A stretch of 1,004 bases of DNA from Naegleria gruberi (lineage: Eukaryota): the NCBI GenBank assembly GCA_000004985.1, contig GG739625.1, one strand, 5' to 3'. The position numbers and the translations under genes were made by a program. Positions 195 through 1,004 of the stretch are shown in pieces. The notes under the pieces were generated by a model. It saw nothing but the letters and a program-made list of their open reading frames with translations. It was not told the DNA's origin and searched no databases. Numbering within the stretch: the first letter of the stretch is position 1; every line of letters starts with the position of its first letter.

Positions 195-205
195 ACTTGC
201 GAATT
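195..205. repeat. Exact 11-bp direct repeat ACTTGCGAATT, copy 1 of 2. An 8-bp partial copy ACTTGCGA also lies at 108-115.
   Basis: Directly seen: acttgcgaatt at 195-205 is identical to 382-392. Confidence 0.85.
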
Positions 206-220
206 TCGGGAAAATAAAAT
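204..220 (+). repeat. Partial copy of the TTTCGGGAAA terminal motif of the inverted-repeat family at 473-485 / 577-589.
   Basis: Directly seen: tttcgggaaaataaaat. The reverse complement of 560-591 reads tttcgggaaattttgtaaaataaaat, which is the same terminal 10-mer plus aaaataaaat with an 8-nt indel. Confidence 0.5.
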
Positions 221-392: not shown

Positions 393-456
393 AGACGAAA
401 GTAGCCCATAGTTTATCATCACATAAAAGTTTTTAAAAGATATGGTCGGGGAGAAA

Positions 457-485
457 GTCCGAAATTGGGTGGTCGGGAAATTTTG
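457..485. repeat. Left arm of an imperfect inverted repeat. The perfect 13-bp core TCGGGAAATTTTG lies at 473-485.
   Basis: Directly seen: 473-485 tcgggaaattttg is the exact reverse complement of 577-589 caaaatttcccga. The arm also carries gtccga (457-462) and gggtg (467-471), which recur in inverted order in the right arm. Confidence 0.75.
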
Positions 486-576
486 GAAAAAAATTTTCCA
501 ACTTTTTCAAAGTATGGTGGATAATAACTAGCCTTAATAATGTAGCGGTTGTAATAAACATTTAAATTTTATTTTA

Positions 577-614
577 CAAAATTTCCCGAAACACCCCTAC
601 GAAACCCGTCGGAC
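577..614. repeat. Right arm of an imperfect inverted repeat. Its core lies at 577-589, extended by cacccc (592-597) and tcggac (609-614).
   Basis: Directly seen: the reverse complement of 577-614 reads gtccgacgggtttcgtaggggtgtttcgggaaattttg. The left arm 457-485 reads gtccgaaattgggtggtcgggaaattttg. They share gtccga, gggtg and the 13-bp core, with indels between. Confidence 0.7.
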
Positions 615-860
615 GAAATAATCGGTCTGTGAAAACTATTTTAAATTTTTCTCAAACCCCGTATTTCCCAAAAATGCCCTTACTTCCTACTTGCTCCGTT
701 TGGACTACCTCCCGAACGTTTGGCATCAAACAATGTTTATTATAGTGGATTATTTTGTCCGACAATTTGCAGTGCACCTTCGAGTTATTTAAATAATGAT
801 TTTTTTATATGACACAACACCCCCCCTCGTGACTTTAAGTTACCCTTGTTTTTCAAAAAA

Positions 861-923
861 GGTCCAAAAAGTAAAAAATTTTTTTTCGATTTTTTTTTTC
901 GCTGGTAAAATCGAGAATGGACC
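861..923. repeat. Nested inverted repeat or foldback. The outer pair is GGTCCA (861-866) / TGGACC (918-923). The inner pair is TCGATTTT (886-893) / AAAATCGA (907-914). It encloses A6, T8 and T10 runs.
   Basis: Directly seen. Both pairs are exact reverse complements. The interior is low-complexity sequence (aaaaaa 873-878, T-run 879-886, T-run 890-899). Confidence 0.7.
879..899. repeat. Low-complexity T-rich tract: T8, then cga, then T10.
   Basis: Directly seen: tttttttt (879-886), cga (887-889), tttttttttt (890-899). Confidence 0.9.
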
Positions 924-1004
924 CCGAGCGAAAACAACATAATATCTACATTACTTCGGTGTGACTTATACTGGATATTACAGAATCTCAAACCAAGAGT
1001 TCCT

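Follow-up and report, generated by a model that had tools for sequence, protein, structure and literature searches.

A foldback in A+T-rich non-coding DNA is read here, tentatively, as two old insertions of one dispersed repeat unit of about 50 nt that landed close together in opposite orientation, rather than as a single miniature inverted-repeat transposable element (MITE). This reading is placed ahead of the others and is held at somewhat under an even chance. The window, that is, the whole stretch of DNA that was analyzed, is 1004 nt long and has a G+C content of 33.8%. In it lie two imperfect inverted arms, each of which stands between the two copies of a direct repeat of its own, and the arms and the two direct repeats have diverged to an equal degree.

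The inverted repeat

The inverted repeat is made up of the following features:

473..485, + strand: exact 13-nt core of the left arm, TCGGGAAATTTTG
577..589, - strand: core of the right arm, exact reverse complement of TCGGGAAATTTTG
467..496, + strand: left arm as supported by gapped alignment and shuffles, GGGTG G TCGGGAAATTTTG G AAA AAAATTT
564..596, - strand: right arm as supported by gapped alignment and shuffles; 28/33 columns match the left arm
497..563, no strand: spacer between the arms, 67 nt, 30% G+C; would be host DNA under the favored model
457..462, + strand: outer GTCCGA word, left copy; its pairing with 609-614 requires an 8-nt indel
609..614, - strand: outer GTCCGA word, right copy

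The sequence-only reading had reported that the 13-mer at 473-485 is exactly reverse-complemented at 577-589, and a script agrees with the reading of the letters. It had also estimated, roughly, that such a match is unlikely by chance. An exact inverted match of at least 13 nt is found anywhere in 50 of 1000 dinucleotide shuffles and within 200 nt in 15 of 1000, so the match by itself is only moderately unusual. The significance of the inverted repeat comes instead from the gapped alignment. When GGGTG-GTCGGGAAATTTTGGAAA--AAAATTT (467-496) is aligned with the reverse complement of 564-596, there are 28 matches, 2 mismatches, and 3 gap columns, for a score of 38. The shuffle null for a spaced inverted repeat with non-overlapping arms gives 23-24 +/- 2.7, and a score of 38 is reached by none of 200 dinucleotide shuffles with the arms within 160 nt and by none of 60 at any distance. 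The outcome is the same with a composition-weighted score. The inverted repeat is real, statistically supported, and capable of forming a hairpin. A naive comparison of the sequence with its own reverse complement is weaker, with 24 of 300 shuffles reaching the observed score. That test was dropped, as its null is probably inflated by zero-spacer A/T palindromes; such palindromes cannot inflate the null used here because its arms are restricted to be non-overlapping.

The extent of the arms differs somewhat from what was first described. The two cores are indeed 91 nt apart (486-576), and the stretch between them has 23% G+C. However, the similarity of the arms runs inward by about 11 nt, which leaves a true spacer of 67 nt rather than a 91-bp interior. 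In the outward direction, the GGGTG/CACCC pairing is solid, whereas the GTCCGA/TCGGAC pair (457-462/609-614) needs the 8-nt indel and is missed by the local alignment, though it is paired in the minimum-energy folds. The window has 3 occurrences of GTCCGA where 0.32 would be expected (1/200 shuffles), a count that applies to a motif picked post hoc, and the outer pair is unnecessary for the significance of the inverted repeat. The segment 440-625, folded as single-stranded DNA, has an energy of -32.2 kcal/mol (z = -4.4), and none of 200 shuffles is equally stable.

Direct repeats around each arm

Each arm is bracketed by an imperfect direct repeat of its own, 427-446/500-518 on the left and 546-570/623-649 on the right:

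427..446, + strand: left direct repeat, first copy, AAGTTTTTAAAAGATATGGT
447..499, + strand: putative inserted unit, copy 1, 53 nt, between the left direct-repeat copies; holds the left arm
500..518, + strand: left direct repeat, second copy, AACTTTTTCAAAGTATGGT; 17/20 columns match
546..570, + strand: right direct repeat, first copy, CGGTTGTAATAAACATTTAAATTTT
571..622, - strand: putative inserted unit, copy 2, about 52 nt, between the right direct-repeat copies; holds the right arm
623..649, + strand: right direct repeat, second copy, CGGTCTGTGAAAACTATTTTAAATTTT; 23/28 columns match

When all blocks of the window were scanned, these proved to be the two top-scoring direct repeats with a gap of 20-200 nt. 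Their raw scores of 24 and 23 are ordinary for shuffled windows, in which the best direct repeat reaches 24 in 27 of 100 cases and the second-best reaches 23 in 11 of 100; the case for the bracketing repeats therefore rests on their placement. At all other positions in the window with the same gap, 0/821 and 0/828 flank pairs reach the observed scores. When dinucleotide shuffling was applied to the local flanks and the arms were left in place, the left repeat was matched in 10 of 400 trials, the right in 1 of 400, and both in 0 of 400. Two further scoring schemes, again with shuffled flanks, gave a joint match in 0 of 300. Such flanks would suit the target-site duplications of variable length that surround each copy of a retroposon, with a placement that is significant even though the scores alone are not. 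A longer similarity between the outer-left and outer-right flanks is at the level of chance (63/300 and 106/300 shuffles). These are the flanks in which the duplication of a MITE would be expected; apart from the two 4-5-nt candidates described below, they have nothing in common beyond chance.

The identities of the three repeats are alike, at 28/33 (85%) for the arms, 17/20 (85%) for the left direct repeat, and 23/28 (82%) for the right. Equal identity of this kind is what the copies of a single master would show if both were inserted at about the same time and everything then underwent neutral decay. It should be kept in mind that the bracketing repeats were spotted post hoc, that the whole argument is drawn from one locus, and that the boundaries are fuzzy by several bases. 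For example, a match at 748-763, described below, runs about 7-8 nt beyond one possible boundary of the right copy and takes in GATTATT, which one alignment places in the right duplication. Read in the orientation of the unit, the two flanking repeats each start in an A-run. The right copy ends in the A-rich GTAAAAT, next to a duplication starting AAAA, and the left copy ends in GGAAAAAAATTTTCC, which is not a clean A-tail.

Possible further pieces of the unit in the window

Words from the unit, GTCCGA among them, are also found elsewhere in the window. One of them, TCGGGAAA, occurs exactly 3 times, and 663-680 matches the right arm at 14 of 18 positions. Two further pieces may derive from the unit:

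204..213, + strand: exact 10-mer TTTCGGGAAA, identical to the right-arm core; possible fragment of another copy
748..763, + strand: possible third, partial copy of the outer end of the unit, GATTATTTTGTCCGAC; 15/16 complementary to 608-623

More generally, there are 19 repeated GC-containing 7-mers in the window compared to 7.9 +/- 3.2 in shuffles (0/300). The recurring words, together with the match at 748-763, suggest a unit that is present in multiple copies, with no extra piece being individually significant. The segment 748-810 was considered as a full third copy and rejected, as only the 16-mer is convincing and the comparison of the left arm with the segment is at the level of chance (59/500).

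A proposed pair of insertions in opposite orientation

Under the favored model, two copies of one unit of about 50 nt, 447-499 (+) and 571-622 (-), would have been inserted about 71 nt apart in A+T-rich, non-coding, probably eukaryotic DNA, at about the same time and in opposite orientation. Each insertion would have occurred at staggered nicks, and the fill-in would have duplicated 19-27 nt of the target. Neutral decay would then have affected the arms and the flanking repeats alike. Since the flanks of each arm are repeated just inside that arm, the stretch between the arms would be host DNA of no special kind, and the capacity for folding back would be a by-product of two inverted neighbors, as is the case with closely spaced inverted Alu pairs. 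The sequence-only reading had offered two head-to-head copies of a short repeat as its second choice; with a bracketing repeat of its own around each arm, it is this choice that fits better.

DNA transposons produce short target duplications of a fixed length. Target-primed reverse transcription yields target-site duplications of variable length (PMC4982230), and it is the process known for long ones. With a short or 5'-truncated RNA as the template of a LINE-type machinery, it is a candidate mechanism for both insertions. The direct repeats would then be target-site duplications left by retroposition, and the unit would probably be present in many copies in the genome.

Inverted pairs of Alu elements, or of the 3' ends of 5'-truncated LINEs, have much in common with this arrangement. 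They too consist of opposite copies of one repeat that lie tens of bases apart, each copy has a flanking duplication of its own and of variable length, and the two copies jointly fold into a hairpin. Such retroposed pairs differ from the present case in several respects. The unit here is only about 50 nt long and carries no recognizable tRNA, 7SL, or 5S-like head in Rfam and tRNA scans, one copy is without a clean poly-A end, and the duplications are 19-27 nt long. These features count against the model; duplications of that length are at the long end for retroposition, and a SINE of only 50 nt would be very small. The collections searched, which include no eukaryotic genomes, yielded no other copy of the unit. 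In addition, for two copies to insert independently about 70 nt apart would be a coincidence if the family were not abundant, though a scan that flags inverted repeats would select exactly such inverted pairs. Because the repeats were found post hoc at a single locus, with fuzzy boundaries and a unit of only 50 nt, confidence in the two-insertion model goes no further than a guarded preference. A bolder version of it, which we regard as highly improbable, is that the unit is a complete and extremely small mobile sequence, retroposed or otherwise nick-primed, that makes unusually long target duplications of 19-27 bp and tends to land in nearby inverted pairs, so that ordinary intergenic DNA is seeded with hairpin loci (dsRNA, small-RNA).

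Alternative explanations

In order of probability, the two insertions come first, followed by a MITE, a local inverted duplication, and a cluster of dispersed repeats, with a hairpin RNA or chance last. The short duplications that bear on the MITE are the following:

453-456/615-618: candidate short duplication GAAA
460-464/600-604: candidate short duplication CGAAA

The MITE would be a single decayed non-autonomous DNA transposon at 457-614 or 465-599, for which a transposase acting in trans would have bound the terminal inverted repeats and moved the element by cut and paste; we consider it unlikely. MITEs are 50-800 bp long and non-coding, with terminal inverted repeats, a target-site duplication, and at least 3 copies with different flanks (PMC6171319). 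The foldback fits the structural part of this definition in being small (135-158 bp), with imperfect inverted arms, an A+T-rich middle, no coding capacity (no frame is open for more than 72 codons), and a stable fold (PMC6171319). Two candidate duplications also adjoin possible termini, namely GAAA around 457-614, with its perfect GTCCG termini, and CGAAA around 465-599. However, the two candidates are mutually exclusive, and both are made from a locally recurrent CGAAA (587, 600, 614, and elsewhere). Random pairs of positions give at least 4 nt at 1.4% and at least 5 nt at 0.5%, and many boundaries were examined; neither candidate is a convincing duplication around the whole unit. Conservation is also highest inside the arms (467-496/564-596) rather than at the putative termini. 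Moreover, the interior shares its ends with the outside flanks arm by arm (500-518 with 427-446, and 546-570 with 623-649), which a single element does not predict and which speaks against an interior that belongs to the element. There is no second full copy in the window or in the collections searched, which hold no eukaryotic genomes. What holds of the original MITE or foldback proposal is a small, non-coding inverted repeat that forms a hairpin, whereas a single element with its own interior is disfavored by the flanks. An FB-type foldback transposon, which would likewise have an inverted repeat able to snap back, does not fit. The arms of FB elements are long and built of tandem sub-repeats, and the arms here are 30-50 nt with no array reported by Tandem Repeats Finder at a minimum score of 30. 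The sole hint of sub-repeats is that CGAAA recurs through the right arm at a loose spacing of 13-14 nt (587, 600, 614; CGAAACACCCCTA / CGAAACCCGTCGGA / CGAAATAATCGGT); this sub-repeat, within 587-626 in the outer part of that arm, generates both candidate short duplications.

A further explanation is a local, non-mobile inverted duplication. One arm could have been copied from the other in place, for example by template switching in replication or repair, and have decayed since. The arms are near each other and about 85% identical, as the closely spaced and decayed arms of local palindromes would be. None of the short candidate target-site duplications is convincing, and the collections searched, none of which holds eukaryotic genomes, yielded no relatives. 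Nevertheless, a local event leaves unexplained why both arms, the presumed template included, have direct repeats of their own around them, and why arm words recur at 204-213, 663-680, and 748-763; we rate it as rather improbable. Short dispersed repeats also fill the intergenic DNA of some repeat-rich organelle or protist genomes, where a cluster could be spread by recombination or gene conversion instead of transposition. Such a cluster would agree with 1 kb of non-coding DNA at 34% G+C in which CpG is not depleted (observed/expected 1.33), with short GC-containing words that recur in both orientations more than in shuffles, and with a second, weaker foldback at 608-763 that shares the middle copy. 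Repeats of this kind are not known for long direct repeats at their flanks, though, and the window has no organelle genes, tRNAs, or rRNAs; we rate this explanation as improbable. A functional hairpin RNA locus, such as a precursor of miRNA or siRNA, has very little in its favor, as does pure chance similarity. The segment 455-616 folds more stably than shuffles as RNA of either strand (-43.3 kcal/mol, z -3.6, for the + strand and -40.1 kcal/mol, z -2.6, for the - strand). Rfam gave sub-threshold matches to two long miRNA-precursor (MIR) families and none near a gathering score; MIR4208 scored 20.4 bits against a gathering score of 140 and MIR2670 scored 13.9 against 117, with E values above 2 (2.7-4.3). 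The loops of animal pre-miRNAs are also shorter than the 67-nt branched loop of this hairpin. Chance is excluded for the spaced inverted repeat, which is matched in 0/200 shuffles.

Significance

Decayed short repeats, and hairpins made by them, are a common sight in non-coding eukaryotic DNA that is rich in A+T, and the biological weight of this locus is small as it stands. Inverted pairs of this kind could give double-stranded RNA if they were transcribed. Its use is rather as a caution. The shape filters applied to MITEs, namely inverted arms, a small size, an A+T-rich middle, and a plausible short duplication, can pass two independent inverted insertions. Comparing the two flanks of each arm with one another separates the two cases, even from a single locus.

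Coding potential and database searches

The window is non-coding DNA and looks eukaryotic, or at least neither prokaryotic nor viral. Open stretches do not exceed 72 codons in any reading frame of either strand, a tRNA scan of the window found no tRNA genes, and sites resembling bacterial promoters and terminators are no more frequent than expected. The observed/expected ratios over 1-1004 are 1.33 for CpG, which is over-represented, 1.54 for GG/CC, and 0.72 for TpA. Among the 10 longest stop-to-stop segments, no Pfam domain scored above its curated cut-off. The 72-codon open stretch at 788-1003 (-) gave DAAF9_N at 16.8 bits against a cut-off of 27 (E 0.004), which is treated as noise because a dedicated homologue search found nothing; part of the match is a low-complexity, lysine-rich run translated from A/T tracts. 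On the same stretch, Histone_H2A_C was weaker still, at 12.2 bits against a cut-off of 20. An exact look-up of the 68-aa ORF among predicted proteins returned no record, and the 22 stop-to-stop segments, concatenated to 998 aa, had no match at E <=0.01 among 5.8 billion predicted proteins.

At the nucleotide level, the whole window had no match by BLASTN in distant mode among 50,697 phage records and 72,556 plasmids. The collections searched with patterns from the unit include no eukaryotic genomes. The arm pattern had 0 matches in 185,579 prokaryote species genomes, 2 in IMG/VR viral contigs, and 2 in JGI metagenome contigs:

L001, 4056-4075: arm-pattern match
L002, 2326-2345: arm-pattern match
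L003, 87-109: arm-pattern match
L004, 5914-5936: arm-pattern match

All four were set aside as chance matches, as they lie in G+C-rich DNA with no likeness to the window beyond the 20-23-nt pattern; L001 and L002 share one stretch of an apparent phage structural gene. The paired-core pattern with its gap had 0 matches in the prokaryote genomes and 0 in the IMG/VR viral contigs, and two other motifs from the window also had 0 in the latter. Full-text literature searches for substrings of the arms found no papers.

Other repeats in the window

The window has several other repeats of lesser weight. The 16-nt inverted repeat formed by GTCGGACGAAATAATC (608-623) and GATTATTTTGTCCGAC (748-763), 15/16 complementary with 124 nt between its arms, makes up the second foldback, whose left arm is shared with the right end of the main foldback. 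Folded as DNA, 600-770 reaches z = -2.2 (5/200 shuffles). The repeat aligns with a score of 27, close to the most that chance gives over the whole window. A third foldback at 195-370 was tried and rejected (z = +1.0).

GC-containing 8-mers, like the 7-mers, recur more often than in shuffles. Examples of recurring GC-containing words are ACCTTCGA at 167 and 776, ACACCCC at 591 and 817, AAACCCG at 101 and 602, and GGTCGGG (the reverse complement of CCCGACC) at 444 and 471.

An exact 11-nt direct repeat, ACTTGCGAATT, is found at 195-205 and 382-392 and can be extended to 22 nt at 77%; with a score of 22, it ranks third among the closely spaced direct repeats of the window. The word ACTTGCGA has a third occurrence at 108-115. 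The block between its copies (206-381) is 176 nt long and richer in G+C (about 40-43%), and it holds a run of 14 A at 361-374 that ends 7 nt before the second copy. The block looks like another retroposon-style insertion.

Two longer-range pairs both have chance-level scores. The first is a direct repeat of TTTAAATGACACAA and TTTATATGACACAA (23-36 / 804-817), 781 nt apart, and the other is a 34-nt inverted repeat (43-76 / 786-819) that is 74% complementary and joins the two ends of the window. Taken together, the two pairs might mark the ends of something larger.
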